From contig JAUSLA010000015.1 of the NCBI GenBank assembly GCA_030646565.1, positions 1-51,468 of the forward strand: a DNA stretch of 51,468 nt, in the 5' to 3' direction. The notes under the pieces are model-generated. The model was given only the letters and a program-made list of their open reading frames with translations, had not been told where the DNA came from and did no database searches. The position numbers were made by a program, and so were the translations under genes. Origin of the DNA: a bacterium (GTDB lineage: Bacteria; Patescibacteriota; Minisyncoccia; Minisyncoccales; RBG-13-42-11). This document shows, piece after piece, positions 7,070 through 47,549 of the stretch. How positions within the stretch are numbered: the first letter of the stretch is position 1; every line of letters begins with the position of its first letter.

Positions 7070-8350
7070 TTATTTTCCTAAGCTATCGACTAACTCTTTT
7101 TCTATTGCCAATAAGCGATTATATTTTGCCATTCTTTCTTTTTGAGTGGGAGCTCCAGCCTTAATAAAATTAGATCCAATACCAACCGCAAAGTCAGCGA
7201 TAAAATCGTCTTTTGTCTCGCCAGATCTATGTGAAACAATAATCTTCCAGCCGTATAATTTGGCTAATTTTGCGGCTGCGATCGCTTCCGAAATAGTTCC
7301 AATCTGATTTGGCTTTATAATTAACGCGTTGCAAATTTTTCTTTGATGAGCAAATTTTATTCTTTCCGGGTTCGTCACCGTTAAGTCATCGCCAACAACT
7401 AATATTTTTAATTTTAGATTTTTAACTTTAGACCTTAAAAACTTCCACCCTTTTACATCCTCTTCGGCAAAAGGATCTTCTATGGCCGTTATCGGATACT
7501 GCTGAAAAATCTCCAGATAAAAACTGAGGAGATCTTTCGAATTCAGAATACTCCCATCAAAATGATATTTTCCCTTTTTAAAAAAGGAATTAGCGGCCGC
7601 ATCAATGATAATTTCCGCCTTGCCCAAAAAACCCACTTTTTCGATCGCTTCCTTTGCTAAACTCAGCGCTTCTTTTGCATTTTTGACGGGAGGAATAAAA
7701 GCGCCTTCCATCCCCTGCTTGCTTCCCAATTGCCCGTATCTTTTTTTTAAAATTTTTCCCAGAGCAGAAAAAACTTTTTTTTCACGGTCAAAGCTTTCTC
7801 TAAAAGATTTTGTCTTGCAAGCAACCATTATCTCTTGGAGAGATAATTTCCCCTTGCCGTGCAACCCGCCTTCCAAAAGCAGAATGCAAGGCCTTGGTAG
7901 GGCTGGTTTTATGCCGGCAATTTTTGAAATCCATTTCCATAGGGGGAATTTTTTAGCTTTGGCTCCGGCTCTGGCAGTCGCTATTGATACTCCTAAAACA
8001 GCGTTTGCCCCCAAGCGGGATTTATTTTTCGTGCCGTCTAACTGAATCAAAGCTTCGTCAACCCTTTTTTGGTCTGATAAGTCTTCCTGTTTCAAAGACG
8101 GCGCGATAATTTTCTCTATATTTTCAATTACTTTTTTAACTCCCCTGCCGTCTTCATCTCTCAATTCTACCGCTTCATATTTTCCCGTAGAAACGCCCGA
8201 AGGCACCGATGCCAAAAATTTTCCAAAATCCGTTTCTAATTCCACCTCCACCGTCGGCATTCCTTTTGAGTCTAAAATTTCCCTGCCTCGTAGTAGAGAA
8301 ATTTTACTGCGGGGCCTGGCTGAAATTTTTTTTATTTTTAAATTATCCAT
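7070..8350 (-). CDS. eno: Enolase
   Basis: The protein has REILDSKGMPTVEVE, SVPSGVSTGKYEA and SHRSGETKDDFIADFAVG. Confidence 0.9.
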   Translation of the reverse strand: MDNLKIKKISARPRSKISLLRGREILDSKGMPTVEVELETDFGKFLASVPSGVSTGKYEAVELRDEDGRGVKKVIENIEKIIAPSLKQEDLSDQKRVDEALIQLDGTKNKSRLGANAVLGVSIATARAGAKAKKFPLWKWISKIAGIKPALPRPCILLLEGGLHGKGKLSLQEIMVACKTKSFRESFDREKKVFSALGKILKKRYGQLGSKQGMEGAFIPPVKNAKEALSLAKEAIEKVGFLGKAEIIIDAAANSFFKKGKYHFDGSILNSKDLLSFYLEIFQQYPITAIEDPFAEEDVKGWKFLRSKVKNLKLKILVVGDDLTVTNPERIKFAHQRKICNALIIKPNQIGTISEAIAAAKLAKLYGWKIIVSHRSGETKDDFIADFAVGIGSNFIKAGAPTQKERMAKYNRLLAIEKELVDSLGK

Positions 8351-9332
8351 TTAGCTTTTGAATGTAAGCGGCTGCGGAAATAGCGGCTTTGGCTCCCTCT
8401 CCTGCAGCGATAACTATCTGGTTATATAAGACATCGTCTACATCACCCGCGGCAAAAAGACCGGCGGTTTTAGTCATACAGGTTCTTGAGTCAACTACAA
8501 TTTCATCTCTCTTATTAAAATCAACCAGCCCTCTGACAAAAGAAGTGGCCGGCTGATAACCAATTTCAACAAAAACGCCTTCCACCGAAAGGTTGATTGT
8601 TTTTTTTGTTTTTCTTTCCTGATAACTTAACGATTCTACAAATTGATCGCCTTGAATTTTTTGCGCAGAAACATTAGTTATTGTTTCAACCTTGCCGCTT
8701 TTTTTAACTAATCCTTGATTTTCAGCGTCGGCTCCAACTTGCGGATTATATTCCAAAATATAAATTTTTTTGGCTATTTTACTTAGAAAAATGGCTGCTT
8801 CAAAACCGGCGTTTCCTCCGCCAACAATTGCCACTGTTTTGTCAAAAAACAAAGGGCCGTCGCATGTGACGCAATAACTCACTCCCTTTCCTAAAAATTC
8901 TTTTTCTCCGGGAACTTCCAAGCGCCTGGGATCAGCTCCCGAAGCAACAATGATTGCTTTTGACTGAAATCGCTGTTTGCTTTTGGTTAAAACCGAGAAA
9001 TTCCTCCCAATTTTTTTTATTTCTTTAGCCTCGTCTCTCTCAATTTCAATTTTCTGTTTTCTTAATTGTTTCTCGAATTTCTGGGTTAGTTCCATGCCGG
9101 ATACTTCTTCAAAACCGGGATAATTTTCAATAACCACTGCTTTTTCTGTTATGTACCCGCCAAAACTTTTAGTTATTAATAACGTATTCAGTCCTTGTCT
9201 TGCTGCGTAAATTCCAGCCGTAATTCCGGCCGGCCCTCCGCCAATAATTATTAAATCATAAACCGAGTCCCGCGAAGCGGGACGAAGGTGGAGAAGAGGA
9301 CGCAGTTCTCTTCGACTCGCTAAGTTACTCAT
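8343..9332 (-). CDS. trxB: Thioredoxin-disulfide reductase
   Basis: The protein has DLIIIGGGPAG, the redox-active CVTCDG, VGGGNAG and FAAGDV. The first ~21 aa are encoded by a family A element. Confidence 0.85.
   Translation of the reverse strand: MSNLASRRELRPLLHLRPASRDSVYDLIIIGGGPAGITAGIYAARQGLNTLLITKSFGGYITEKAVVIENYPGFEEVSGMELTQKFEKQLRKQKIEIERDEAKEIKKIGRNFSVLTKSKQRFQSKAIIVASGADPRRLEVPGEKEFLGKGVSYCVTCDGPLFFDKTVAIVGGGNAGFEAAIFLSKIAKKIYILEYNPQVGADAENQGLVKKSGKVETITNVSAQKIQGDQFVESLSYQERKTKKTINLSVEGVFVEIGYQPATSFVRGLVDFNKRDEIVVDSRTCMTKTAGLFAAGDVDDVLYNQIVIAAGEGAKAAISAAAYIQKLNG
9262..9321 (+). repeat. Family A element inside the trxB 5' coding region
   Basis: The sequence is ACCGAGTCCCGCGAAGCGGGACGAAGGTGGAGAAGAGGACGCAGTTCTCTTCGACTCGCT. 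Confidence 0.85.
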
Positions 9333-16000: not shown

Positions 16001-16294
16001 TTAATATTCTAATTTTATCCCAAGTTTTTCGGCAACCTGATGAAACCACTTTTCGTGGCGATCAACTTTGTGAGCTAACATCACCATTTCCTGAAAATAA
16101 GTATCGGCCTTCTTGGCGTAAGCATCAATGGAAACCATAAGATTATTAAAATCCTCTTTTGTAGAAAGATTCTTTACAGCTTTCTCTAAATCTTCTCTAG
16201 TGGCAAATACATCAAACAGCTTATTAAATCTTTCGTCAATTTTCTCAAACTTCTCATCTAAATATTGAATCAATTCGCTAAAATCTTCTTTCAT
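16001..16294 (-). CDS. Hypothetical coiled-coil protein
   Basis: This 97-aa charged helical ORF has its own terminator. I recognised no family. Confidence 0.5.
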   Translation of the reverse strand: MKEDFSELIQYLDEKFEKIDERFNKLFDVFATREDLEKAVKNLSTKEDFNNLMVSIDAYAKKADTYFQEMVMLAHKVDRHEKWFHQVAEKLGIKLEY

Positions 16295-16296
16295 AT

Positions 16297-16349
16297 ACCG
16301 AGTCCCGCTTTGCGGGACGAAGGTGAAGAAGAATTAATATTCTTCGCCT
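16297..16349 (+). repeat. Family A element
   Basis: The sequence is ACCGAGTCCCGCTTTGCGGGACGAAGGTGAAGAAGAATTAATATTCTTCGCCT. Confidence 0.85.
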
Positions 16350-16398
16350 AATCTTATTATATGCGTTTTCAAACTATGCTGTCAAATATAAGTATTGT

Positions 16399-16437: not shown

Positions 16438-18224
16438 TTATTTATTGCTCTGGCTCTATCTATTTTTGTCAGATATTGTTTTCGCAACCGGACGCTTTTT
16501 GGGGTAATTTCCAAGTATTCGTCATCGGTCATAACTTCAAGCCCTCGCTCAATCGTAAGTAAAAATGGAGGAGTAAGATCAATTGCTTCGTCTGAACTTT
16601 TGGAGCGCATATTAGTAAGCTGTTTGCCTTTTGTGGGATTCACATCCATATCGTTTCCTTTTGAGGTATTGCCTATGACCATACCAATATATACTTCTGT
16701 GCCCGGATCAATATAAAGCATGCCTCGCTCCTGGAGACCCCACAAGGAGTATCCAAGCGTCTTCCCGTTGGTCATAGAAATCATTGAACCAACTCTTCGC
16801 TTGCGGATCTCTCCCGCATACGGTTTAAATCCTAAGAAACGCGAAGAAAGAATGCCCTTGCCCTTCGTGTCAATTATAAACTGATTTCTGTAGCCCAAAA
16901 GCCCCCTTGTAGGCCCTTCCAATGTAAGCCGCACTATGTCGCCGCGCTGGGCAATATTGTTCAAAATACACGAGCGCGCGCCAAGCCGTTCAATAATCGC
17001 GCCTTGATATTCCTGCGGCGTATCAATAATGACCTCTTCAAATGGCTCGGAGACCTCGCCATCATTTTCCTTACGGAAAATGACCTGCGGATTGGAGACC
17101 TGTACTTCGTAACCAGCGCGTCTCATATTCTCAAGAAGAATCGCGATGTGCAGTTCGCCCCTGCCATACACCCTGAAAGTATCCGTTGATGTAAAATCAA
17201 CCCGCAAACCGACATTAACTTCCAACTCGCGTTTCAAATAATCCCGCAGTTCGCGGGACGTTACATGCGTCCCTTCTCGCCCCATAAATGGAGAGCTGTT
17301 CACTAAAAAGTTAAGGGTAATGGTTGGCTCATCAATCGCGATAGCTGGAAGCGGTTCTGCGTTCGCATCGGTTGTTACCGTTTCGCCAATATCAATATCC
17401 GGCAGTCCGGCAATAAGCGCGATATCGCCTGCGCTTGTTTCTTGGACATCTATTCTTTCCAATCCATTGAAAGTAAAAATTTTAGTAATTTTGCCGGAGC
17501 GGATTTCGCCATTCTGTTTTTTCACAAACACATTGTCTCCGGATTTAAGAATGCCTTCATACACGCGCCCCACCGCCATGCGTCCTAAAAAATTATCATA
17601 GGCAAGATTAAATGGCTGGAACCGCAAGGGTTTTAAGTCCAATAATTCTGACGAAGCGCAGGGAACATAAGAAAGAATCATATCCAGAAGCGGCGTAAGA
17701 TCTTTTGATTCATCTTCAAGTTTAAGCTTTGCAACGCCTTGGCGGCCGACAGCGTAGACAACCGGAAAATTTGCCTGGTTGTCGTCAGCTCCAAGTTCCA
17801 GGAAAAGCTCGAGCACTTGTTCTTCCGCTTTTTTAGGATCTGCGGCTGTTTTATCTATTTTATTTATTATTACTATGGGTTTTAATCCAAATTCCAGGGA
17901 TTTTTTTAAAACGAAGCGGGTTTGCGGCATAGGGCCTTCTTGCGCGTCCACAACTAAAAGCACGGAGTCAATTGAACGCAAAACTCTTTCCACTTCCGAG
18001 CCGAAATCTGCATGGCCGGGAGTGTCCACTATATTTATCTTCGTACCGCGAAAAGAAATAGCCGCATTTTTTGAATAAATGGTAATGCCGCGTTCAAGTT
18101 CCAGCGCGTTTGAATCCATTGAAACCCCTTCTTTAAAAGCTCCGGTTTGGCGCAACAAAGCATCGGTCAAAGTTGTTTTGCCGTGATCAACATGAGCAAT
18201 GATAGCGATGTTTCTTATTTCCAT
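16434..18224 (-). CDS. typA: Translational GTPase TypA/BipA
   Basis: The protein has IAIIAHVDHGKTTL, DTPGHADF and NKID. I placed the start at ATG 18224 (MEIRN). The track start at 18236 lies inside the loop of a repeat hairpin. Confidence 0.9.
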   Translation of the reverse strand: MEIRNIAIIAHVDHGKTTLTDALLRQTGAFKEGVSMDSNALELERGITIYSKNAAISFRGTKINIVDTPGHADFGSEVERVLRSIDSVLLVVDAQEGPMPQTRFVLKKSLEFGLKPIVIINKIDKTAADPKKAEEQVLELFLELGADDNQANFPVVYAVGRQGVAKLKLEDESKDLTPLLDMILSYVPCASSELLDLKPLRFQPFNLAYDNFLGRMAVGRVYEGILKSGDNVFVKKQNGEIRSGKITKIFTFNGLERIDVQETSAGDIALIAGLPDIDIGETVTTDANAEPLPAIAIDEPTITLNFLVNSSPFMGREGTHVTSRELRDYLKRELEVNVGLRVDFTSTDTFRVYGRGELHIAILLENMRRAGYEVQVSNPQVIFRKENDGEVSEPFEEVIIDTPQEYQGAIIERLGARSCILNNIAQRGDIVRLTLEGPTRGLLGYRNQFIIDTKGKGILSSRFLGFKPYAGEIRKRRVGSMISMTNGKTLGYSLWGLQERGMLYIDPGTEVYIGMVIGNTSKGNDMDVNPTKGKQLTNMRSKSSDEAIDLTPPFLLTIERGLEVMTDDEYLEITPKSVRLRKQYLTKIDRARAINK

Positions 18225-18225
18225 A

Positions 18226-18285
18226 GCGAGTCCCATTTATGGGACGAAGCTGAAGAAGAGGACGCAGTCCTCTTCGCCTACCGAG
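18226..18285 (+). repeat. Family A element
   Basis: The sequence is GCGAGTCCCATTTATGGGACGAAGCTGAAGAAGAGGACGCAGTCCTCTTCGCCTACCGAG. Confidence 0.85.
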
Positions 18286-19970: not shown

Positions 19971-20496
19971 AAAAAATAATACATTTCGCATTTTAAAAGG
20001 AGCTGAAACGAATATCTTAAACGATGGTAAGATAGACATTAAAGACGAGGCCTTGAAAAAACTGGATTATGTTATCGCCGGCATTCATTCTTCTTTAAAA
20101 ATGGAAAAATCCAAAATGACGGAAAGAATTATTCGGGCAATGAAAAATCCAAACGTTGATATTATTTCCCATCCGACAGGCCGAATCTTGAAAGCAAGGG
20201 ATGAATATCAAATTGACTTTGACAAGATTTTAAGAGCGGCTAAAGAATACAACGTTATTTTGGAAATAAACGCTTTTCCTGCTAGATTAGATCTTAACGA
20301 CCAGAATATCAGGAGGGCGAAATCAGCTGGAGTAAAAATGGCAATCAATACAGACGCTCATAAAAAAGACCAATTGAGATTTATTGAATTTGGAATAGCT
20401 CAAGCCAGGCGGGGTTGGGCGGAAAAAGAAGACATTATCAATACCCAGCCATTAGAAAAATTATTAGCTGAGTTCCGCTTTGCGGAACGAAAGTGA
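19936..20496 (+). pseudogene. PHP-domain (PolX / histidinol-phosphatase-like) C-terminal fragment
   Basis: The ORF has GAETNIL, VIAGIHSS, IISHPTGR, ILEINA and AINTDAH, but the N-terminal HxH metal motif of the PHP fold is absent. Family A repeats occupy the upstream sequence, and a repeat also supplies the stop codon. Confidence 0.55.
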
Positions 20497-20522
20497 AGAT
20501 GAGGACGCAGTCCTCACCGCCT
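20467..20522 (+). repeat. Family A element overlapping the 3' end of the PHP fragment
   Basis: The sequence is GCTGAGTTCCGCTTTGCGGAACGAAAGTGAAGATGAGGACGCAGTCCTCACCGCCT. The TGA at 20494-20496 lies in the inter-hairpin linker. Confidence 0.85.
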
Positions 20523-23058: not shown

Positions 23059-23247
23059 TTAGCTTTTTAGCAATTGTTTTATTTTTTTAGCTTCGTTTTT
23101 TGAAACTTCAATTAATTTCCGCCTTTTTCTTATTTTCTTTCCCGATTTTTTTGCCAGAAAATGGTCAAGACCGGTAGATCTTCTTAATATCTTGCCGGTT
23201 TTAGTGAATTTGAAGCGTTTTAAGATTGATTTTCGTATTTTCCCCAT
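23059..23247 (-). CDS. rpmI: 50S ribosomal protein L35
   Basis: This is a 62-aa basic protein containing KRFKFTKTGKILRR, located between infC and rplT. Confidence 0.9.
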   Translation of the reverse strand: MGKIRKSILKRFKFTKTGKILRRSTGLDHFLAKKSGKKIRKRRKLIEVSKNEAKKIKQLLKS

Positions 23248-23249
23248 AA

Positions 23250-23306
23250 ATCGAGTCCTGCTTTGCGGGACGAAGATGAAGATGAGGACGAAGTCCTCAT
23301 CGCCTA
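23250..23306 (+). repeat. Family A element filling the infC-rpmI spacer
   Basis: The sequence is ATCGAGTCCTGCTTTGCGGGACGAAGATGAAGATGAGGACGAAGTCCTCATCGCCTA. It occupies essentially the entire 59-nt intercistronic gap. Confidence 0.85.
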
Positions 23307-39398: not shown

Positions 39399-40907
39399 AT
39401 GAAAAATAAATTTTATATTACAACCACTCTTCCTTATGTAAACGCAGAGCCCCATATCGGTTTTTCTTTAGAAATTGTTCAGGCCGATGTTATTGCCAGA
39501 TATCAGAGGGCTTTGGGCAAAGATGTTTTTTTTAACACCGGAACCGACGAACACGGGCTGAAAATTTACCGCAAAGCATTAGAAGAAAATAAAAACCCCC
39601 AAGATTACGTTGACGAATACGCCGCAAAATACGAGTGCCTCAAAAGGGCTTTGAATTTAAGCTACACCAATTTTATCCGCACCACCGACGCCCATCACGT
39701 TTTAGCTGCCCAGAAATTTTGGATACGTTGTCTGAAAAACGGAGATATCTATAAAAAAAACTATAAAATCAAATACTGCGTTGGCTGCGAACTGGAAAAA
39801 ACCGATTCAGAATTAGCAAAGGGAAAATGTCCCATTCATCCTAATCTGTCCTTAGAGCAAATAGAGGAGGAGAATTATTTTTTTAGATTTTCCAAATACC
39901 GACAGCCACTCCTTGATTTTTACAAGAAATACCCTGACTTTGTAATACCGGTGTCCAGATTTGCTGAAGTGAAAAGTTTTATTAGACAAGGGCTTCGGGA
40001 TTTTAGCGTTTCGCGACTTAAAGAAAAAATGCCTTGGGGTGTTCCGGTTCCAGGAGACGATTCTCAAGTTTTTTTTGTTTGGTTTGACGCTTTGATCAAT
40101 TATATTTCCGCTTTGGGTTGGCCCGAGCAAAAGAAGAATTTTCGGGCATATTGGGGAAATAAAAGAAACCCTAACGCCCTTCAAGTTGCCGGTAAAGACA
40201 ATTTGCGCCAGCAATCAGCTATATGGCAAGCCATGCTTATGTCTGCCGGCCTTCCTAATTCAAGGAAAATTATTATACACGGATTTATTACCGTTGCCGG
40301 CCAGAAAATGTCCAAAAGTTTGGGAAATGTGGTTTCTCCCTTTGAATTGGTCAAAAAATACGGGACTGACCCTGTAAGATATTTTCTTTTGCGGGAAATT
40401 CCACCGACCGAGGACGGCGATTTTACCTATGAGAAGTTTGAATCAAGATATAATTCTGATTTGGCCAATGGATTAGGAAATTTGGCGGCGAGAGTAATAA
40501 CGCTTGCAAAAATTTCTAATACCGAGCTTCCACTTGTGGAAGCGAAGGTGAAGAAGAGAACGGAGTTCTCTTCGCCTTTCAAATTTCTAATTTCCAAACA
40601 AATCCAAAATCCAAAATTCAAAACAACAATAAACAAAACTTGGGGAAAATATCACAAGGCTTTAGGCGAATTTAAGTTTAATGAGGCGTTAGTTGCAGTT
40701 TGGAATTTAATTGGTTTTTGCGACCGTTACATTGAAAAAGAAAAACCATGGGAAAAAAGCCAAAAACAAAAAGAAGTTATTGGCGATTTATTATTAGCTA
40801 TTAATGAAATAGCGAAACTTTTAGAGCCATTTTTGCCCGAGACATCAGAAAAAATCTTTCAGCAATTAAAAAATAAAAAAAGCAAATCTCTCTTTCCCAG
40901 AATCTAA
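39399..40907 (+). CDS. metG: Methionine--tRNA ligase
   Basis: The protein has TTLPYVNAEPHIGF (HIGH region) and KMSKSLGN. It carries one in-frame family A insertion. Confidence 0.9.
   Translation: MKNKFYITTTLPYVNAEPHIGFSLEIVQADVIARYQRALGKDVFFNTGTDEHGLKIYRKALEENKNPQDYVDEYAAKYECLKRALNLSYTNFIRTTDAHHVLAAQKFWIRCLKNGDIYKKNYKIKYCVGCELEKTDSELAKGKCPIHPNLSLEQIEEENYFFRFSKYRQPLLDFYKKYPDFVIPVSRFAEVKSFIRQGLRDFSVSRLKEKMPWGVPVPGDDSQVFFVWFDALINYISALGWPEQKKNFRAYWGNKRNPNALQVAGKDNLRQQSAIWQAMLMSAGLPNSRKIIIHGFITVAGQKMSKSLGNVVSPFELVKKYGTDPVRYFLLREIPPTEDGDFTYEKFESRYNSDLANGLGNLAARVITLAKISNTELPLVEAKVKKRTEFSSPFKFLISKQIQNPKFKTTINKTWGKYHKALGEFKFNEALVAVWNLIGFCDRYIEKEKPWEKSQKQKEVIGDLLLAINEIAKLLEPFLPETSEKIFQQLKNKKSKSLFPRI
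40521..40577 (+). repeat. Family A element in frame in metG (19 codons)
   Basis: ACCGAGCTTCCACTTGTGGAAGCGAAGGTGAAGAAGAGAACGGAGTTCTCTTCGCCT is translated as TELPLVEAKVKKRTEFSSP. Confidence 0.85.
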
Positions 40908-40910
40908 AAT

Positions 40911-41840
40911 ATGTTTACAGCTTTTGTCATTATTGTTGGGTTGGTGATTTTTGAGATAATCAGCAGCATTGATAACGCTATTATTAACGCTCATATTCTA
41001 AAAACAATGAGCGTTAAATGGCGGAAAATTTTTCTCTTCTGGGGTATTTTTACCGCGGTTTTTCTCGTCAGGGGCCTTCTTCCTTTAGCAATTGTTTGGC
41101 TGTCGGTTCCTGAAATTGGTTTTTGGGGAGTATTCCAATCAATGTTTAAGAGTTCGCCGGAAATTGCCCAGACAATAGAAGCAAGAAAGGGCATAATTTT
41201 GATTGGAGCCGGCGTTTTTCTTTTATTGATTTATCTTCATTGGCTATTTTTGGAAAAAAAAGACCCATTTTTTGTTTCTGACAAGTTAATAAAGCCGAAT
41301 TATGGGGTCTGGTTTTTTGCTTTTGCCGCCATAATTTTAGTCTCCCTTTTGTATCTGGCAAGAAATTCTTACCAACTAATGTTATCTGCCGCTATAGGTT
41401 ATGCCGTGTTTTTTATTATGTATGGTTTTCGCGAGCAAGCGGCCAAAGAAGAGGCAAGACTGGAGGGTGGCCAGTCACATTTGAGTAATTTTTCAAAATT
41501 AATGTTTCTTGAAGTATTGGACACTTCTTTCAGTTTTGACGGAGTCATTGGCGCTTTTGCTTTTACCACTGCAATCCCTTTAATTTTTTTGGGAAACGGA
41601 ATAGGAGCTTTGGTTGTAAGACAATTGACTATCAGCGGCATAGAGCGGGTGGAAAAATACAAATGGCTGAAAAACGGGGCAATGACTTCAATAGGAATTT
41701 TAGGCGTTTTTATTATTGCCAAAAGTTTCGGCGTCCATATTCCAGAATACTTGCCCACCTTAACGACTATCGGGCTTGTAGGTTTAACCTTTTGGAGGTC
41801 TCATCAACTTTTAAAAAAGAATAACCAAGGTGCTAATTGA
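40911..41840 (+). CDS. Integral membrane protein (DUF475/TerC-like)
   Basis: The protein is polytopic and contains SSIDNAIINA. Confidence 0.55.
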   Translation: MFTAFVIIVGLVIFEIISSIDNAIINAHILKTMSVKWRKIFLFWGIFTAVFLVRGLLPLAIVWLSVPEIGFWGVFQSMFKSSPEIAQTIEARKGIILIGAGVFLLLIYLHWLFLEKKDPFFVSDKLIKPNYGVWFFAFAAIILVSLLYLARNSYQLMLSAAIGYAVFFIMYGFREQAAKEEARLEGGQSHLSNFSKLMFLEVLDTSFSFDGVIGAFAFTTAIPLIFLGNGIGALVVRQLTISGIERVEKYKWLKNGAMTSIGILGVFIIAKSFGVHIPEYLPTLTTIGLVGLTFWRSHQLLKKNNQGAN

Positions 41841-41916
41841 CACCCATTCCCATTTGAACCCCGAAGGAGAAAACTTCGTTTTCCCTACGGGGCAAGTTTC
41901 AACGCTTTTATGTTAA
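41830..41916 (+). other. 28-codon upstream ORF: a duplicated tatD N-terminus interrupted by a family B element
   Basis: The GTG start overlaps the upstream gene's stop. The ORF encodes VLIDTHSHLN, then element-derived codons, and its stop TAA (41914-41916) overlaps codons 2-3 of tatD. Confidence 0.55.
41859..41896 (+). repeat. Family B hairpin element (38 nt)
   Basis: The sequence is CCCCGAAGGAGAAAACTTCGTTTTCCCTACGGGGCAAG. Confidence 0.75.
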
Positions 41917-42818
41917 TTGACACTCACTCGCATTTAAATTTCAACGCCTACAAAAATGATGCAGATGAAGTGATAAAAAGAGCACTAGACAATGATATCT
42001 GGATGCTCAATGTCGGCTCGCAATTTTCCACCTCAAAAAGGGCGGTTGAAATAGCCGAAAAATATCCAAAAGGAGTGTATGCCGCCGTCGGCCTTCACCC
42101 AATACATTTAACTGAAGGAATTTTTAAAACAAAAATTGATACAGAAGAAATTGAATTTAAAAAAGCTGAAGAAGATTTTTATTACGAAAAATATAAAGAA
42201 TTAGCCCGATCTAAAAAAGTTGTCGCTATCGGCGAGGTTGGTTTAGATTATTATTATCGGCCAAAAACAAAAACAAAACTTGAACAGTTCAAAAACAAAC
42301 AAAAAGAAGCGCTTTTGGCGCAGTTGGCTTTAGCCAAAGAGCTGAATTTGCCAGTAATTTTCCATTGCCGTTCAGCACATAAGGATTTGATAGAAATCCT
42401 CAACTATAAAACAAGAACTACAAACTATAAACCGAATGGAGTAGTTCATTGTTTTACCGGAAATTTGGAAGAGGCAAAACAATATCTGGAATTGGGGCTT
42501 TATCTTGGTTTGAACGGGATAATTTTTAAGCTGGAGGTCGCTGAGACTTCGTCTCATCTCTCATCTCGTGCGGCTTCGCCGCACTCGGTTTTAGACGAAG
42601 TTATCAAAAATATTCCTTTAAATAGAATTTTAGTTGAAACAGATTGCCCCTATTTGACGCCGCCACCTTTTGAAGGACGAAATGAACCTTTGTATATTAA
42701 ATCAGTTGTCCAGCGAATAGCTGAAATTAAAAATATGAACTACGAGGAAATAGCTAAAATTACTACTGAAAATGCCAAAAAATTATTTACCGAGTTCCGT
42801 GAAGCGGAACGAAGGTGA
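41910..42818 (+). CDS. tatD: TatD family metal-dependent hydrolase
   Basis: The protein has MLIDTHSHLNF, GEVGLDYY, FHCR, HCFTG and VETDCPYLTP. It contains one internal family A insert, and a second copy supplies the last 9 codons and the stop. Confidence 0.9.
   Translation: MLIDTHSHLNFNAYKNDADEVIKRALDNDIWMLNVGSQFSTSKRAVEIAEKYPKGVYAAVGLHPIHLTEGIFKTKIDTEEIEFKKAEEDFYYEKYKELARSKKVVAIGEVGLDYYYRPKTKTKLEQFKNKQKEALLAQLALAKELNLPVIFHCRSAHKDLIEILNYKTRTTNYKPNGVVHCFTGNLEEAKQYLELGLYLGLNGIIFKLEVAETSSHLSSRAASPHSVLDEVIKNIPLNRILVETDCPYLTPPPFEGRNEPLYIKSVVQRIAEIKNMNYEEIAKITTENAKKLFTEFREAERR
42534..42590 (-). repeat. Family A element in frame in tatD (19 codons)
   Basis: GAGGTCGCTGAGACTTCGTCTCATCTCTCATCTCGTGCGGCTTCGCCGCACTCGGTT is translated as EVAETSSHLSSRAASPHSV. 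Confidence 0.8.
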
Positions 42819-42844
42819 AGAAGAGGACGCAGTCCTCTTCGCCT
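42789..42844 (+). repeat. Family A element (near-consensus) spanning the tatD stop
   Basis: The sequence is ACCGAGTTCCGTGAAGCGGAACGAAGGTGAAGAAGAGGACGCAGTCCTCTTCGCCT. The stop TGA at 42816-42818 lies in the linker. Confidence 0.9.
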
Positions 42845-42867
42845 TTCAAAAATTTAAATCAAAATTT

Positions 42868-43704
42868 ATGCCAAAAGTCGCAATTATCGGAGGAAGCGGG
42901 GTTTACGACTCCGGAATTTTTAAAAAGGAAAAAGAGGTTAGAATAAAAACTCCGTTCGGCTATCCTTCCTCGCCAATTGAAATCGGCGATTTTCTGGGCC
43001 CCGAAGGAGACGCTTCGCGACCCTACGGGGCAAGCCAAAAAATCGCTTTTTTGGCAAGGCACGGAAAGAATCATCAATTTCCTCCGCATAAAGTTCCTCA
43101 AAAAGCCAACCTTTGGGCTTTGAAAAAACTAGGCGTTGAAAGAATAATTGGAATTTGCGCTGTCGGCTCTTTAAAGAAAAGTTTTAAGCCGGGAGACATT
43201 GTGATTTGCGATCAGTTTATAGATTTTACCAAAAAACGGGAATACACTTTTTATGATGGTTCGACGAGCTCACCACTTAGCAGTAAGGCGATACACATTT
43301 CTTTGGCCGACCCTTTTTGTCCTGAATTAAGAAAGTTATTTTTTAAAGAAGCGAAAAAGCTAAAAATCCCAGTTCATCAAAAAGGGACTTATCTTTGCAT
43401 CGAAGGGCCGAGATTTTCAACTCGGGCGGAATCAAAATTCTTCAGAAATTTTGCCGATATTATTGGAATGACTTTAATTCCTGAAGCGGTTTTGGCCAGA
43501 GAATTGGAGATTTGTTATTTATCTTTAGCTATGGTAACCGATTACGATGTTTGGCAAGACAGCCCTGTAAGCGCGGAAGAAGTGATAAAGACAATGAAAG
43601 ACAACTTGGAGAAAATCAAAAAATTATTAAAAAATACCATTCCTCAAATTAAAATTCAAAGAAATTGTCCTTGCAAAACAGCTCTCAAAAACGCCAAAAT
43701 TTAA
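42868..43704 (+). CDS. mtnP: S-methyl-5'-thioadenosine phosphorylase
   Basis: The protein has MPKVAIIGGSGVYD, FLARHG, GPRFSTRAE and GMTLIPEAVLARE. I placed the start at ATG 42868. Confidence 0.85.
   Translation: MPKVAIIGGSGVYDSGIFKKEKEVRIKTPFGYPSSPIEIGDFLGPEGDASRPYGASQKIAFLARHGKNHQFPPHKVPQKANLWALKKLGVERIIGICAVGSLKKSFKPGDIVICDQFIDFTKKREYTFYDGSTSSPLSSKAIHISLADPFCPELRKLFFKEAKKLKIPVHQKGTYLCIEGPRFSTRAESKFFRNFADIIGMTLIPEAVLARELEICYLSLAMVTDYDVWQDSPVSAEEVIKTMKDNLEKIKKLLKNTIPQIKIQRNCPCKTALKNAKI
42999..43034 (+). repeat. Family B hairpin element in frame in MTAP (36 nt)
   Basis: CCCCGAAGGAGACGCTTCGCGACCCTACGGGGCAAG encodes most of the GPEGDASRPYGAS segment. It lies just before the conserved FLARHG. 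Confidence 0.75.
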
Positions 43705-43725
43705 TTGGTTTAGCGAATGTTAGAT

Positions 43726-43782
43726 AGCCGAGCCGCAGGCGACGGGTGGAGAAGAACACGAATGTGTTCTTCGACTAGCCGA
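43726..43782 (+). repeat. Family A element (short hairpin 1 variant)
   Basis: The sequence is AGCCGAGCCGCAGGCGACGGGTGGAGAAGAACACGAATGTGTTCTTCGACTAGCCGA. Confidence 0.75.
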
Positions 43783-43919
43783 TATTTAACATAATTTGCG
43801 TTGAACATTGTATTTTTTACTCCATTTGTGGTATAATTTAATTAGAGTGGATATTCTTTAAGCGGGAAACGCAAAACAAAATTATAAATTCGAAGAGATA
43901 TAGTATTCAATAAAAAAAT

Positions 43920-44723
43920 ATGATACAAAAATTTTTTTTGATTTTAGGAATTGTTGCGACGTTAGTAATGGCCGTGCTTTTGATAGGCGTCTACAAACTT
44001 CCCCTGCCGCCAGCCAGCGAGCTTCAAAAAGAAAACAGTTTTATATTTACTGCCGAATATTCCAAGGATAATTTTGAAGTTATAGAAGTAGCGCACATTG
44101 ATAAGCCGGGATATGTTGTGGTTCATGAAAACAACAATGGCACGCCGGGCGAGGTTTTGGGTGTGAGCGGGTTAATAACTGGCACCAATTATGACATAGA
44201 GATTCCCATAGACAGCAGGCAAAGTACAACGAGTGTTATTACAAAACTTTATTATGACAACGGAGATTCTGTATTTGATGTTAAATCTGATGTTCCGGTA
44301 GAGTCAGATAGCGCAACAATAATAGGCCCTGTGGTTGGTCCGTCGGTCAGTCCTGGGGTATTCACCGGAAACTTGCAGCAATTTGAGCCATTCAGAGTTA
44401 ACGCTACAATATTGGATATATACACCATAAACGATGATGGCGTAAAAAAAATGGGTAAAATCAGAATTAACAATATATTGGAGCAATGTGGATCAGCAGT
44501 CTGGGAATGTAAAACAAAAATATCAGCGGGAGACGTATTAGACGTATATTTCCAGCAAGGCACTGTTGTAGGGTCACAGTGTCCTCCTGAGGGAAGCGCA
44601 GCGCCTTGCAGTATTGGTTATAGTGTTGGAAAGGGCGACCAAATAGAAGCAGGACTTCAAATTAACATAGAAGATTCCTCGTATAAGAAAAACACGATTT
44701 TTGTAATAAGAAAAATAGAATAG
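43920..44723 (+). CDS. Secreted or membrane-anchored hypothetical protein
   Basis: The protein has an N-terminal signal-anchor (FFLILGIVATLVMAVLLIGV), a DKPGYVVVHENNNGTPGEVLGVS segment and a Cys-rich C-terminus. The gene has its own terminator. Confidence 0.5.
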   Translation: MIQKFFLILGIVATLVMAVLLIGVYKLPLPPASELQKENSFIFTAEYSKDNFEVIEVAHIDKPGYVVVHENNNGTPGEVLGVSGLITGTNYDIEIPIDSRQSTTSVITKLYYDNGDSVFDVKSDVPVESDSATIIGPVVGPSVSPGVFTGNLQQFEPFRVNATILDIYTINDDGVKKMGKIRINNILEQCGSAVWECKTKISAGDVLDVYFQQGTVVGSQCPPEGSAAPCSIGYSVGKGDQIEAGLQINIEDSSYKKNTIFVIRKIE

Positions 44724-44750
44724 ATAATATTAAAAAAGAGCAGCCAATTA

Positions 44751-44781
44751 CCATAAGGAGCTAAGCTCCTTATGGTTTTTT
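44751..44781 (+). terminator. Rho-independent terminator
   Basis: The sequence is CCATAAGGAGC-TA-AGCTCCTTATGG followed by TTTTTT. Confidence 0.75.
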
Positions 44782-44784
44782 AAT

Positions 44785-44942
44785 ACCGAGTTCGCCAAAG
44801 GTGGACGAAGGTGACTCAAAGAAGATAAATCTTCTTTTCCACCTGCGTCCCACTTTGTGGGACTTGGTAGATGAGGAAGTAGTCCTCATCGCTTACTTGA
44901 GCGAAGCGAAGAGTGAAGATGAGGAAGTAGTCCTCATCGCTT
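44785..44942. repeat. Element-only tract of about 3 family A units upstream of leuS
   Basis: The tract reads ACCGAGTTCGCCAAAGGTGGACGAAGGTGACTCAAAGAAGATAAATCTTCTTTTCCACCTGCGTCCCACTTTGTGGGACTTGGTAGATGAGGAAGTAGTCCTCATCGCTTA...GAAGATGAGGAAGTAGTCCTCATCGCTTA. Confidence 0.8.
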
Positions 44943-44976
44943 AGACAAAATCGGGTTTTTGGGATATGATATTTTT

Positions 44977-45063
44977 ATGAATTATAATCCGCAGGTAATT
45001 GAAAAAAAGTGGCCCCGTAAAGATTTTTCTATGGAAAAATCAACGGGGCAAGCAGAAACATGA
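44977..45063 (+). other. 28-codon upstream ORF: a leuS-like N-terminus interrupted by a family B element
   Basis: The ATG at 44977 opens an ORF encoding MNYNPQVIEKKW followed by element-derived codons. Its stop TGA (45061-45063) overlaps the leuS ATG (45060-45062) as ATGA. Confidence 0.55.
45013..45052 (+). repeat. Family B hairpin element (40 nt)
   Basis: The sequence is CCCCGTAAAGATTTTTCTATGGAAAAATCAACGGGGCAAG. Confidence 0.7.
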
Positions 45064-47549
45064 AATATGAACCGCAGAAAATAGAACCTAAATGGCAAAA
45101 GTATTGGGAGGAACAGGGATATTATCTGGCAGAGGATTTTTCAAAAAAGCCAAAAAAGTATATTTTATTTGAATTTCCTTATCCTTCGGGGGAAGGTCTT
45201 CACGTTGGCCACGCTAGGAGTTATGTTGCCATAGACGCCCTTTCCAGAAAAAAAAGAATGGAAGGATATAATGTTTTATTCCCAATTGGCTGGGATGCTT
45301 TTGGTTTGCCGACAGAGAATTACGCCATCAAAACCGGTATTCATCCCCAAAAAGCAACCGAGCAAAACATCGCTAATTTTAAAAGACAAATGAAAAACTT
45401 GGGCCTTTCTTTTGATTGGTCAAGAGAAATTAATACCACCGACCAAAAATACTACAAATGGACTCAATGGATTTTTCTTAAACTCTACGAGAGGGACTTA
45501 GCTTACCAAGCGGAAATTCCGGTGAATTGGTGTCCTTCCTGTAAAATTGGCTTGGCTAATGAAGAAGTTGTTGGCGCAGGATGCGAGAGATGTGGGACTC
45601 CTGTTGAAAAAAAGATTTTAAAGCAGTGGATGCTTAAAATTACCTCGTACGCAGACAGATTAATAGACGACTTGGAGATGGTTGATTATCCAGAGAGAGT
45701 GAAGTCCCAGCAAAAAAACTGGATCGGTAAAAGCTATGGCGTAGAGATTGATTTTAAGACAACAGGGGCGGAAGAAATAGGCGAAGAGGACAAGTCCTCT
45801 TCTTCACCTTCGTCCCGCAAGCGGGACTCGGTCATTAAGGTTTTTACCACCAGAGCAGACACTCTTTTTGGAGTAACGGCAGTTGTTTTAGCTCCCGAAC
45901 ACGAAATTATTTCAAAATTAAAATCTCGAATTTTAAATCTGAAAGAGGTGCAAGATTACATTAATCAAGCGGTAAAGAGGAGTGAATTTGAGAGGACAGA
46001 ATTGGCGAAAGAAAAAACGGGAGTTGAGTTAAAAGGAGTTAAAGCGATAAATCCGGCTAACGGAGAAGAGGTGCCGGTCTGGGTAGGAGATTATGTGGTG
46101 GCTGTTTATGGCGGCGGAGCGGTTATGGTAGTTCCTGCTCACGATTTTAGGGATTACGATTTTGCCAAAAAATACGGCCTGGAGATAAGAGAAGTTGTTT
46201 CGGTTTGCCCGCCGAAGCCCGAAGGGCGAAGGTGGGGCGGAGATATTTCGAGGGAAGCTTTTGTTGGCTACGGCGTTTTAATTAACTCGGGCCAATTTAA
46301 TGGTTTAACTTCTGAAAAAGCAATTGAAGAAATCACCGCCTGGCTTGAAGTAAGGAATGAAAGTAAAAAAACAATAAAATACAAATTAAGGGACTGGGTT
46401 TTTTCCAGGCAGCATTACTGGGGAGAGCCGATTCCAATTATTCATTGTCCAAAATGCGGGGCAGTGCCGGTGTTAGAAAAAGATTTACCGATAGAGCTTC
46501 CTTATGTTGAAAAATATCAGCCAACAGGAACGGGTGAATCGCCTTTGGCAGTGATTTCAGAATGGGTTAACGTTGCTTGTCCTGAATGCGGCAGCCCGGC
46601 TAAAAGGGAAACAGACACTATGCCCAACTGGGCTGGTTCTAACTGGTATTATATAAGATATTGCGACCCGGATAATAGCAAAGAAATAGCCGATTCTCAA
46701 AAATTGAAATATTGGCTTCCGGTTGACTGGTATAACGGCGGAATGGAGCACACCACTTTGCATCTTTTATATTCTCGTTTTATATATAAATTTCTTTTTG
46801 ATATCAGGGTTGTTTTTCAGCCAGAGCCCTACAAAAAAAGAACTTCACACGGCATGGTCTTGGCCCAAGACGGCAGAAAAATGTCAAAGTCTTTCGGAAA
46901 TGTTATTAATCCTGACGATATTGTCCGGCAATATGGAGCCGACACTCTGCGACTTTATGAAATGTTTATGGGGCCTTTCGGGGAAACAATTGCCTGGAAC
47001 AGCCAAGGATTGAAAGGGTGCCATCGTTTTTTGGAAAAAGTTTGGAGATTAGCTTTAGAATCATCTGCAGAAAATAAAACCAGCGCTAATATATTAAGGG
47101 CCCTGCACAAATTGAATAAAAAAGTGGAAGAGGACTTAGAGGAAACAAAATTTAACACGATAATTGCATCTTTTATGGAGTTTGTTAACCTGGCCCTGGA
47201 GAATGAAAAAGAAATTAGTAGAGAGGCAATTGAGCGATTCTTAATTTTACTTTCTCCTTTTGCTCCCCATATTTCAGAAGAGTTGTGGGAGAAGATTGGG
47301 AAAAATGGCAGCATTCAAAAGCAAGAATGGCCAAAGTACGATCCGTTATTAGTTAAAGAAGAGATTGTTAATTTGATTATTCAGATCAATGGAAAAGTCC
47401 GGGACAAGATTGAGGTTGACCCGGCTCTTTCCGAAGAAAAAGCCAAAGAGATTGCGTTTGCGCGAGAAAAAATTAAAAAATGGATAGATGGCAAGGAAAT
47501 AAAAAAAATAATTTTCATTAAAGATAAGATCATAAATATCGTCGTATAG
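45060..47549 (+). CDS. leuS: Leucine--tRNA ligase
   Basis: The protein has EFPYPSGEGLHVGHARSY (HIGH region), KMSKSFGN, and the editing domain with VFTTRADT. Confidence 0.95.
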   Translation: MKYEPQKIEPKWQKYWEEQGYYLAEDFSKKPKKYILFEFPYPSGEGLHVGHARSYVAIDALSRKKRMEGYNVLFPIGWDAFGLPTENYAIKTGIHPQKATEQNIANFKRQMKNLGLSFDWSREINTTDQKYYKWTQWIFLKLYERDLAYQAEIPVNWCPSCKIGLANEEVVGAGCERCGTPVEKKILKQWMLKITSYADRLIDDLEMVDYPERVKSQQKNWIGKSYGVEIDFKTTGAEEIGEEDKSSSSPSSRKRDSVIKVFTTRADTLFGVTAVVLAPEHEIISKLKSRILNLKEVQDYINQAVKRSEFERTELAKEKTGVELKGVKAINPANGEEVPVWVGDYVVAVYGGGAVMVVPAHDFRDYDFAKKYGLEIREVVSVCPPKPEGRRWGGDISREAFVGYGVLINSGQFNGLTSEKAIEEITAWLEVRNESKKTIKYKLRDWVFSRQHYWGEPIPIIHCPKCGAVPVLEKDLPIELPYVEKYQPTGTGESPLAVISEWVNVACPECGSPAKRETDTMPNWAGSNWYYIRYCDPDNSKEIADSQKLKYWLPVDWYNGGMEHTTLHLLYSRFIYKFLFDIRVVFQPEPYKKRTSHGMVLAQDGRKMSKSFGNVINPDDIVRQYGADTLRLYEMFMGPFGETIAWNSQGLKGCHRFLEKVWRLALESSAENKTSANILRALHKLNKKVEEDLEETKFNTIIASFMEFVNLALENEKEISREAIERFLILLSPFAPHISEELWEKIGKNGSIQKQEWPKYDPLLVKEEIVNLIIQINGKVRDKIEVDPALSEEKAKEIAFAREKIKKWIDGKEIKKIIFIKDKIINIVV
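45779..45832 (-). repeat. Family A element in frame in leuS (18 codons)
   Basis: AGGCGAAGAGGACAAGTCCTCTTCTTCACCTTCGTCCCGCAAGCGGGACTCGGT is translated as GEEDKSSSSPSSRKRDSV. Confidence 0.85.

Follow-up and report, generated by a model that had tools for sequence, protein, structure and literature searches.

Rickettsia palindromic elements (RPEs) are palindromic repeats that lie in frame in many unrelated protein genes, are translated and are apparently tolerated as selfish DNA (Ogata et al. 2000, 2002, as summarised in PMC10969869). We report here on a family of hairpins (family B) that, in contig JAUSLA010000015.1 (the window, which is the entire 51,468-nt metagenome-assembled contig), splits an upstream duplicate of the start of leuS, the gene for leucyl-tRNA synthetase (LeuRS), and that recurs in the same layout at tatD, in relatives and at many further genes. 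The likeness to RPEs that we claim is one of behaviour: both are short palindromic in-frame insertions that occur in many copies and are absent from orthologues (the copy in an MTAP-like gene of the window is missing from the relative L007), but RPEs measure ~100–150 bp and belong to Rickettsia, whereas family B elements measure 31–48 nt and belong to bacteria of the Candidate Phyla Radiation (CPR). A strong sense bias of family B (54:3 among the listed copies) sets it apart from RPEs, and the RPE review (PMC10969869) reports neither duplication of gene 5' ends nor leader open reading frames (ORFs) for these elements.

The small G+C-rich hairpin, its orientation specificity and the lack of an obvious target-site duplication at simple insertions recall the repetitive extragenic palindromes (REP/REPIN) with their REP-associated tyrosine transposases (RAYT) and the IS200/IS605 insertion sequences. 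REP/REPIN sequences are, however, mainly extragenic, whereas nearly half of the listed family B copies are intragenic and in frame, and no RAYT or TnpA gene was identified among the three window ORFs scanned with Pfam. The right end of IS608 is cleaved ~10 nt 3' of the hairpin foot, and an IS608-like cleavage distance would fit the 9–13-nt remnant of gene sequence that follows the hairpin at family B loci. We know of no REP/RAYT or IS200/IS605 system that duplicates a 30–50-nt target anchored at the start codon. In comparison with GTAG-tagged REPs (PMC3733652), family B has GTAG only inside the stem and on the opposite strand.

Integrative elements at gene ends (e.g. those whose attP carries a tRNA 3' end) also finish in a duplicate of the segment that they interrupt, with the gene rebuilt and the old end left partial, but the unit here is only ~66–145 nt, has no integrase and lies at the 5' ends of protein genes; and each locus has a duplicate of its own gene, which rules out a fixed component of a single mobile element. 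As in termination–reinitiation coupling (ATGA), the stop codon of a leader overlaps or abuts the main start, although the upstream ORF is in this instance a truncated copy of the gene's own start plus hairpin codons and not a neighbouring gene. Translational bypassing in T4 gene 60 and at the mitochondrial 'byp' elements, which derive from mobile GC hairpins, likewise combines short mobile hairpins in coding sequence with a protein that is kept, whereas our evidence favours, over ribosome hopping, that copies in frame are simply translated and that the others rely on a duplicated start. We found no prior description of hairpin-split duplicated gene starts in the literature on CPR bacteria, miniature inverted-repeat transposable elements or RPEs.

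The split duplicated start of leuS

The leuS gene of the window (829 aa, 45060..47549, plus strand) matches a LeuRS from an NCBI metagenome-assembled genome at 100% and has the full LeuRS Pfam domain set; its nearest proteins come from Parcubacteria/Nealsonbacteria, the best relative being only 75% identical. It is preceded, on the same strand, by a 28-codon leader ORF (MNYNPQVIEKKWPRKDFSMEKSTGQAET followed by the stop codon, 44977..45063) that runs through a hairpin. The first part of this leader, copy A (44977..45012, plus strand), is an upstream duplicate of leuS codons 1–12 and has 26/36 nt in common with copy B (45060–45095, plus strand), which is the same set of codons as translated at the N-terminus of LeuRS and runs on into the remainder of the gene. 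The copy A peptide from ATG 44977 (MNYNPQVIEKKW, compared with MKYEPQKIEPKW at the true N-terminus) has all of the residues that are conserved in LeuRS (Y, P, Q, I, E, K and W). Copy A is followed by the 40-nt family B hairpin (45013..45052, sense strand, CCCCG...CGGGGCAAG; the whole element is CCCCGTAAAGATTTTTCTATGGAAAAATCAACGGGGCAAG), which has an RNA fold of -16.8 kcal/mol (z = -5.3) and homologues at the same codon in two relatives (L001 and L003). Next comes CAGAAAC (45053..45059, plus strand), which we read as the remnant of copy A 3' of the hairpin, that is Q, K and one further nucleotide, possibly belonging to CAT = H with its 'AT' in common with the true ATG. Finally, the leader TGA (45061–45063) overlaps the leuS ATG at 45060 as ATGA. 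Judged from the sequence, copy B is the real LeuRS N-terminus and copy A is an interrupted upstream copy, split after codon 12.

An earlier note, made from the letters of this DNA, had described the 40-nt element, the nucleotides that follow it and the ATGA overlap, and in these respects it is confirmed. Its equation of CAGAAA with the Q-K that follows W in leuS is weak when taken alone (4/6 nt) but is strengthened by analogy with tatD, L005, L007, L117, L205 and L158, other loci continuing for 2–4 codons past the hairpin in the same manner. It had also stated that the two leuS copies differ non-synonymously; they do, but only at positions that are variable among real LeuRS orthologues.

In a window-wide scan for an upstream copy of a gene's own first 27 nt, leuS and tatD both reached 21/27, against a maximum of 19/27 at 547 control start-like positions. 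Nucleotide-level searches for the upstream copy and for flank repeats were otherwise too insensitive in A-rich, synonymously diverged DNA, and protein-level tests were used instead. With a 10-column position-specific scoring matrix (PSSM) built from 120 LeuRS N-termini, copy A of leuS scored 30.1 bits against a best of 7.3 bits in 383 control windows; the N-terminal similarity is thereby significant, and the claim that ATG 44977 opens a LeuRS-type N-terminus stands. The architecture and SIGNIFICANCE of the leuS layout are supported by the sequence, the window scan and the PSSM, and the observation is real and significant.

The second locus, tatD, mirrors leuS, as the earlier note had said, in the 28 codons of the leader, in the order of gene start, hairpin and remnant, and in the overlap with the true start. 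Its leader ORF (41830..41916, plus strand, start codon GTG) ends at a TAA (41914–41916) that overlaps the true ATG at 41910 (ATGTTAA, 41910–41916). Copy A, (M)LIDTHSHLN, occupies 41830–41859 and differs from the gene at 7 positions in 10 codons, all of the differences being synonymous. A hairpin related to that of leuS (about 41860–41897) lies inside the leader, and the remnant TTCAACGCTTTT (41898–41909) matches codons 11–14 of the true gene, whose ORF (302 aa, 41910..42818) opens with the ATG after the remnant; all of these features are on the plus strand. When the hairpins are taken out, the first ~14 codons stand twice in tandem at both loci, with a unit of 43 nt at leuS and 42 nt at tatD. 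Family B has three copies in the window (at 41859, 42999 and 45013), and the remaining one is a plain 36-nt (12-codon) in-frame insertion, PEGDASRPYGAS, in the PNP/MTAP-like gene (42999..43034, plus strand), with no duplication and with no counterpart in the L007 orthologue.

Recurrence in relatives and at other genes

The leuS arrangement was found in five other genomes (L001, L003, L004, L005 and L007), at two insertion codons. In L001 and L003 a 40-nt hairpin lies after TGG (W12), as in the window, and copy B has no ATG of its own; in L004 and L005 the hairpin lies in or after the I-E codons (E9); and in L007, the closest relative and one chosen irrespective of the feature, a 34-nt hairpin lies within codon E9. 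Past this hairpin the L007 copy continues as A AAA AAA TGG CA (…E-K-K-W), and the annotated leuS ATG is formed by those K-W codons. L001, L003, L004 and L005 are the four of the 120 best LeuRS homologues in which the arrangement is joined in frame to the protein and lengthens its N-terminus, as the DNA confirms. Several of the loci studied here come from Hainich groundwater sets. As a negative control, a contig scan with LeuRS in 80 more distant genomes, mostly from distant taxa, found an upstream leuS copy in none (0/80). The tatD arrangement occurs in L006 and L209, at the same codon and with the same FNAF remnant, and is absent from L001, L004, L007 and L210. The gene starts of leuS and tatD seem to be insertion hot spots. 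Two other LeuRS homologues (P0026 and P0102) and two TatD homologues (P0159 and P0216) have an N-terminus that is split by other in-frame insertions without duplication, as MNYNPQE / PERGKAERMVKMKENPEWGKLHR / QIEKKW and MLID / ALIHSASTLSKIEWV / DTHAHL, respectively.

Family B was sought in metagenomes with the pattern CCCCGAAGG-N(8-26)-CCTACGGGGCA, which matched at least 120 stretches, mostly on low-GC contigs; 123 copies were analysed, and the counts that follow refer to these listed matches. Within long ORFs, 54 copies lie in the sense and 3 in the antisense orientation, and 53/57 in-ORF hairpins are stop-free and have a length that is a multiple of 3. Hairpins that lie no more than about 25 nt upstream of the start of a long ORF belong mostly to the duplicated-start class. 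In the ~770 kb of DNA that was fetched, the strict family B pattern is confined to these gene starts and to one in-frame PNP/MTAP-like copy; three more strict-pattern matches were dismissed as GC-rich chance hits. Family B is, then, a palindromic element that enters coding sequence in the sense orientation in Parcubacteria-type (CPR) bacteria. Rfam has no family for the hairpin or the leader (41500–45400, E<=1), the one match, to a long non-coding RNA, being spurious.

Further genes with the layout came from a flank test on the 123 copies, in which the peptide from a start codon to the hairpin was compared with the N-terminus of an ORF starting no more than 170 nt downstream; it gave scores of 56, 48, 39, 36, 35, 34 and 28, against a 99th percentile of 27 in the cross-locus control. 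Pfam confirmed the gene identities of the flank-test loci (uvrA, xth-like, rtcB and dnaE/PHP) and that of ychF. The copies at uvrA (L117) read MAENFIKVRGARV / hairpin / MAENVIKVRGARVHNLK, and those at dnaE (PHP; L205) MKFTHLH / hairpin / MIQKFTHLHVHSHYS; at rtcB (L132, L140 and L171) MISKKDF stands in both copies, with Ser encoded by TCA in one and by AGT in the other. The xth-like locus (L127, 544–760) has copy A, the hairpin and a promoter-like 53-nt spacer twice in tandem upstream of the gene, with a period of 106 nt; of the two copies of A, the inner one matches the gene at 21/22 positions and the outer one has diverged further. A zinc-ribbon protein (L135 and L158) and, as shorter cases, rpsT and a second uvrA complete this set, and a separate scan found ychF (L045, 1336–1521), where the copies are 41/42 identical and a longer, related hairpin lies within the Walker A codons. 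The layout follows a single rule: codons 1..n (n = 3–14), the hairpin, 2–4 further codons of that copy (9–13 nt), 0 to ~60 nt and then the complete gene.

The earlier note had proposed a common mechanism for leuS and tatD, such as an element-associated duplication or a repair by duplication or recombination, and had named two outcomes that would speak against it, namely a lack of significance against LeuRS profiles and the absence of relatives or further examples with the layout. Both were looked for and neither was obtained; the presence of the layout at leuS and tatD in relatives and at the other genes listed above upholds the proposal. The length of 28 codons, which the note had offered as a shared trait, holds for both window loci but not as a general property, since periods elsewhere range from 66 to 144 nt.

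Some observations lie beside these. In L092, L094, L138, L157 and L166, one hairpin subfamily stands in a common conserved non-coding context, …GGCTCCCGAATTAAAACCATCGCAAA[hairpin]TGCTTTTGAAATTATTTTGCCAAATCTGATACACAAATCC…, and this recurrent context may be a piece of a larger conserved element or RNA. The window also contains a second repeat family (family A), a double hairpin (GAGTCCCGCTTTGCGGGAC...GAAGAGGACGCAGTCCTCTTC) with at least 13 copies in both orientations, intergenic and within ORFs (e.g. 9251–9317, 16286–16352, 18213–18279, 20456–20522, 23239–23305, 40511–40577, 42778–42844 and 44864–44945). In the window these double hairpins are seen as insertions in frame and as extensions of N-termini, and no 5' duplication goes with them; a thioredoxin-reductase-like ORF (8343–9332, minus strand) begins, at 9251–9332, with MSNL, 19 family A-encoded residues and VYDLIIIGGGPAG, the insertion being in frame after codon 4 and without duplication. 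Two 26-nt family A hairpin copies, 48 nt apart, lie immediately 5' of the promoter-like site of leuS. LeuRS has an 18-residue in-frame insertion (GEEDKSSSSPSSRKRDSV, window ~45780–45833) at a family-A-like repeat, which is missing from its nearest homologues, and TatD has an 18-residue in-frame insertion at a hairpin repeat (VAETSSHLSSRAASPHSV, at ~42537–42590) and a family A-encoded 7-residue C-terminal extension (42795–42818), both without counterpart in its nearest homologues. A supposed third window case at the MTAP-like gene, in which ATGCCAAAA is repeated around a family A element, was rejected, the 'copy' being conserved C-terminal coding sequence of tatD itself (...ENAKKLF) that matches by chance; a look-alike match at 20446/20527 sits in the C-terminus of an upstream ORF.

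Expression, maintenance and origin of the arrangement

We assign a probability of roughly 0.6 to the reading that the leuS start has undergone a tandem duplication split by the hairpin, that leuS is expressed by reinitiation, that the duplicate rescues the frame and that copy A is refreshed by recombination. According to this reading, the ribosome would start at copy A, read the hairpin as part of the 28-codon leader, stop at the UGA that overlaps the leuS AUG (AUGA) and reinitiate. A hairpin with a length other than a multiple of 3, placed within the first 3–14 codons, would destroy the gene, whereas the insertion at codon n of the hairpin, 2–4 codons and a fresh set of codons 1..n would leave the downstream frame intact. 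Apparently the duplicated start lets the element occupy the starts of essential genes without killing them; the pattern is observed, and the cause is what we infer from it. The hairpins in the copies A of the loci examined first are 34, 34, 37, 38, 40, 40 and 40 nt long.

Concerning expression, a promoter-like site (TAGACA-17 nt-TATGAT, 44942..44970, plus strand; 10/12 consensus positions, a consensus match only) has a -10 box that ends 6 nt 5' of ATG 44977, and no Shine–Dalgarno (SD) motif is present. Drawn from this position, the leuS transcript would start at or next to the copy A ATG, and it is probably leaderless. A -10-like box lies 6–9 nt before the copy A start at 11/19 loci. Among the 45 called genes of L001, L004 and L007, 13 have a -10-like hexamer that ends 5–10 nt before the ATG and 5 have an SD-like motif, which suggests that leaderless or SD-independent initiation is widespread in the clade. 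The leader stop lies on, or within a few nucleotides of, the ATG of copy B at window leuS and tatD and in L140 (ATGA), L205 and L135, and no U-tract terminator was seen 3' of the leuS hairpin. LeuRS is probably produced by termination–reinitiation after the leader ORF; for the whole set of loci we favour termination–reinitiation where the copies are out of frame and a read-through fusion where they are in frame (L001, L003, L005, L007 and L151).

By its context we take copy A to occupy the native position of the gene start. At tatD it overlaps the stop codon of the upstream DUF475/TerC gene, which is the exact position of the tatD start in L007, and at ychF the sequence 5' of copy A in L045 is homologous to that directly 5' of ychF in L211 (~1455–1545), where ychF has the same neighbouring gene but not the arrangement. 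Because copy A is native by comparison with insertion-free alleles, the extra DNA is an island at codon n, in which the hairpin and the remnant or spacer are followed by codons 1..n once more. In L212 (~1440–1545) the 3' half of the hairpin and the spacer are the sole upstream region of ychF, so that L045 joins two 5' contexts that L211 and L212 keep separately; this suggests that the 5' regions of genes turn over by way of such arrangements.

Codon differences between copies A and B amount to 47 synonymous and 21 non-synonymous ones over 11 cases, and each of the old cases has far fewer non-synonymous changes than a neutral simulation predicts (P 0.02 to <5e-5). Such selection-like divergence in a fragment that is no part of the protein looks like a paradox, which recombination can account for in the way seen in L006 and L209. 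These two sequences come from different samples and are identical over ~3 kb (0–1 mismatch per 60 nt) except for two divergent blocks: the first runs from the last part of the upstream gene into copy A as far as codon 6 (with 3 differences in A, all synonymous), the second starts at copy B codon 11, and everything between them, from the last A codons through hairpin, remnant and spacer to B codons 1–10, is an identical island. The pattern shows that a diverged tatD allele has recombined in, with copy A as left homology and the gene body past codon n as right homology. Since recombination uses copy A as its left homology, copy A is overwritten by sequence that is functional elsewhere, and the same refreshing would account for the 'swap' whereby window copy A resembles L001 copy B and vice versa. 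More generally, a diverged allele would come in by way of copy A on the left and of the gene body past codon n on the right, and the hairpin, the remnant and B(1..n) would persist as an island. The involvement of recombination, which the earlier note had considered, is thus direct as far as the evolution of copy A is concerned. The divergent tatD block (L006 ~840–895 versus L209 ~1862–1981) also contains an indel of about 60–100 nt, which may be another element insertion.

Several points weigh against the reading that we prefer. The start of the second copy lies at or within a few nucleotides of the start codon, and no model that was tested accounts for this. About half of the hairpins in duplicated starts (among the metagenome matches listed) are 33 or 36 nt long, so a broken frame is not always the reason for the duplication. 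The leuS arrangement is in frame in four other genomes, in two of which (L001 and L003) copy B has no ATG, so the leader ORF is one of two modes. Refreshing is seen in one strain pair at tatD, and it is for leuS that we infer it. Cases that were found by protein similarity are biased towards conservative differences, although such a bias cannot account for a P value as small as that of the window tatD. Expression coupling, leaderless initiation and the promoter are all deduced from sequence, and a second promoter-like match lies within copy A. Finally, no transposase was seen among the three window ORFs scanned with Pfam.

With regard to the origin of the hairpin-split duplication, the hairpins of copy A interrupt essential motifs (HxH in TatD and PHP, Walker A in YchF). 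A bare insertion would usually be lethal on account of frame and motifs, so insertion and duplication should arise together or the duplication should come first; most likely, the hairpin is inserted and the start duplicated in one event. In formal terms, the layout is what would result if a circularly permuted unit were integrated by a single crossover, if the template were switched at the hairpin or if a tandem duplication held the hairpin in its first copy. The length of the remnant (9–13 nt) points to breakage or switching at a set distance 3' of the hairpin, and the near-identical copies (41/42 in L045 and 21/22 in L127) show that the duplicate can originate within a genome or population. 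We suggest, tentatively and with less confidence than we place in the reading as a whole, a self-compensating insertion, in which the hairpin and the circularly permuted gene codons 1..n+k would integrate at codon n as one coupled event, homologous recombination would spread and maintain the islands between lineages and the islands would be intermediates of 5'-region and promoter turnover. Such a unit could stem, for example, from an aberrantly excised circle or from a template switch ~10 nt past the hairpin.

Other origins were tried and rejected. An RNA-templated origin, with the left edge of the repeat set by the transcription start, fits leuS and many leaderless-looking loci but fails at tatD, where copy A overlaps the upstream gene without a promoter. 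The repeat is not a classical target-site duplication, as it is ~10 to 53 nt long and anchored at the start codon, with the hairpin inside the first copy 5–13 nt before its end. Template and variable repeats of a diversity-generating retroelement do not fit either, given that 2/7 of the tatD differences involve A and that the differences are codon-position specific.

Of the rival explanations, in-situ gene replacement survives best. In that event a foreign leuS (copy B and the gene body) would have entered by homology-facilitated illegitimate recombination, leaving ~14 resident codons as copy A and the hairpin as an incidental feature or as the mark of a break. Copies A and B do differ like orthologues of different lineages, window copy A resembling L001 copy B and the reverse; L045 unites the 5' context of L211 (upstream of A) with that of L212 (hairpin half and spacer), and L006 and L209 show foreign tatD alleles entering by recombination. 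Such a scar leaves unexplained, however, why a hairpin of one family lies inside every copy A and why A continues for 2–4 codons past it before B begins; the two copies are almost identical in young cases, and neither the window scan nor the ~770 kb of fetched DNA yielded a 5' duplication that lacked a hairpin. It would also be very surprising if illegitimate joints had landed by chance on or beside the start codon at over 10 independent loci. We therefore consider gene replacement unlikely as a general explanation, and a serious rival for some loci.

That the leader ORF and hairpin form a selected attenuator-like or autoregulatory device for leuS and tatD, with a leader peptide under selection, is less probable again. 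Conservation of copy A at the amino-acid level could be taken in its favour, but this has a demonstrated other cause in the recombination of L006/L209, and although the leader stop overlaps the main start, the hairpin is stable and the arrangement is kept in diverged genomes, the 28-codon leader has no Leu codon. Neither an alternative terminator/antiterminator pairing nor a T-box or other Rfam hit was found, and with no U-tract terminator either, leader-peptide attenuation and T-box control were rejected for leuS. Furthermore, the same hairpin is a plain in-frame insertion in unrelated genes, the arrangement occurs at functionally unrelated genes and the remnant gene-like codons persist even when out of frame.

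Translational bypass, with take-off before the hairpin in copy A, landing on the matching codon of copy B and copy A as the true N-terminus, we regard as very improbable. The gap would be 80–89 nt, beyond known bypasses, that of T4 gene 60 being ~50 nt; the take-off codon has no stop codon behind it, copy B retains its own ATG and full coding capacity, and the element is translated elsewhere (53/57 listed in-ORF copies being stop-free multiples of 3). These points outweigh the match of take-off and landing codons, which is trivial given the duplication, the position of the stable hairpin, whose initial CCC/CGN codons adjoin the take-off codon, and the amino-acid conservation of A, for which bypass would account.

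Lastly, chance similarity or an assembly artefact (e.g. strain variants stitched at a repeat) deserves almost no credence, in spite of a metagenome-assembled contig and an AT-rich, repeat-rich region, in view of the scores (21/27 against 19/27, 30.1 against 7.3 bits), the layout in independent assemblies from NCBI, ENA, JGI and Logan, the five contigs that carry P0037, the identical island in L006 and L209 from different samples and the in-frame versions called as proteins.

Meaning for Parcubacteria-type genomes

Small palindromic elements in protein genes are known; what is new, on the reading of a hairpin-split duplicated start, is a recurrent layout in CPR/Parcubacteria that makes insertions into the first codons harmless, where insertions into the first few codons of essential genes would be expected to be lethal. 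The arrangement also provides a sequence-defined handle on the mechanism of hairpin mobility. Several deposited LeuRS and TatD proteins bear spurious or real N-terminal extensions composed of copy A and hairpin codons, and true starts can be mis-called in annotation. In the strain pair L006/L209, a non-functional fragment keeps a signature of purifying selection via recombination, which is a caveat for calling function from ratios of non-synonymous to synonymous change (dN/dS). If the self-compensating mode is true, it would let a selfish element colonize the starts of essential genes such as leuS and dnaE. These genomes are poor in SD motifs and probably leaderless, and the expression of essential genes in them may rely on reinitiation downstream of a leader ORF.

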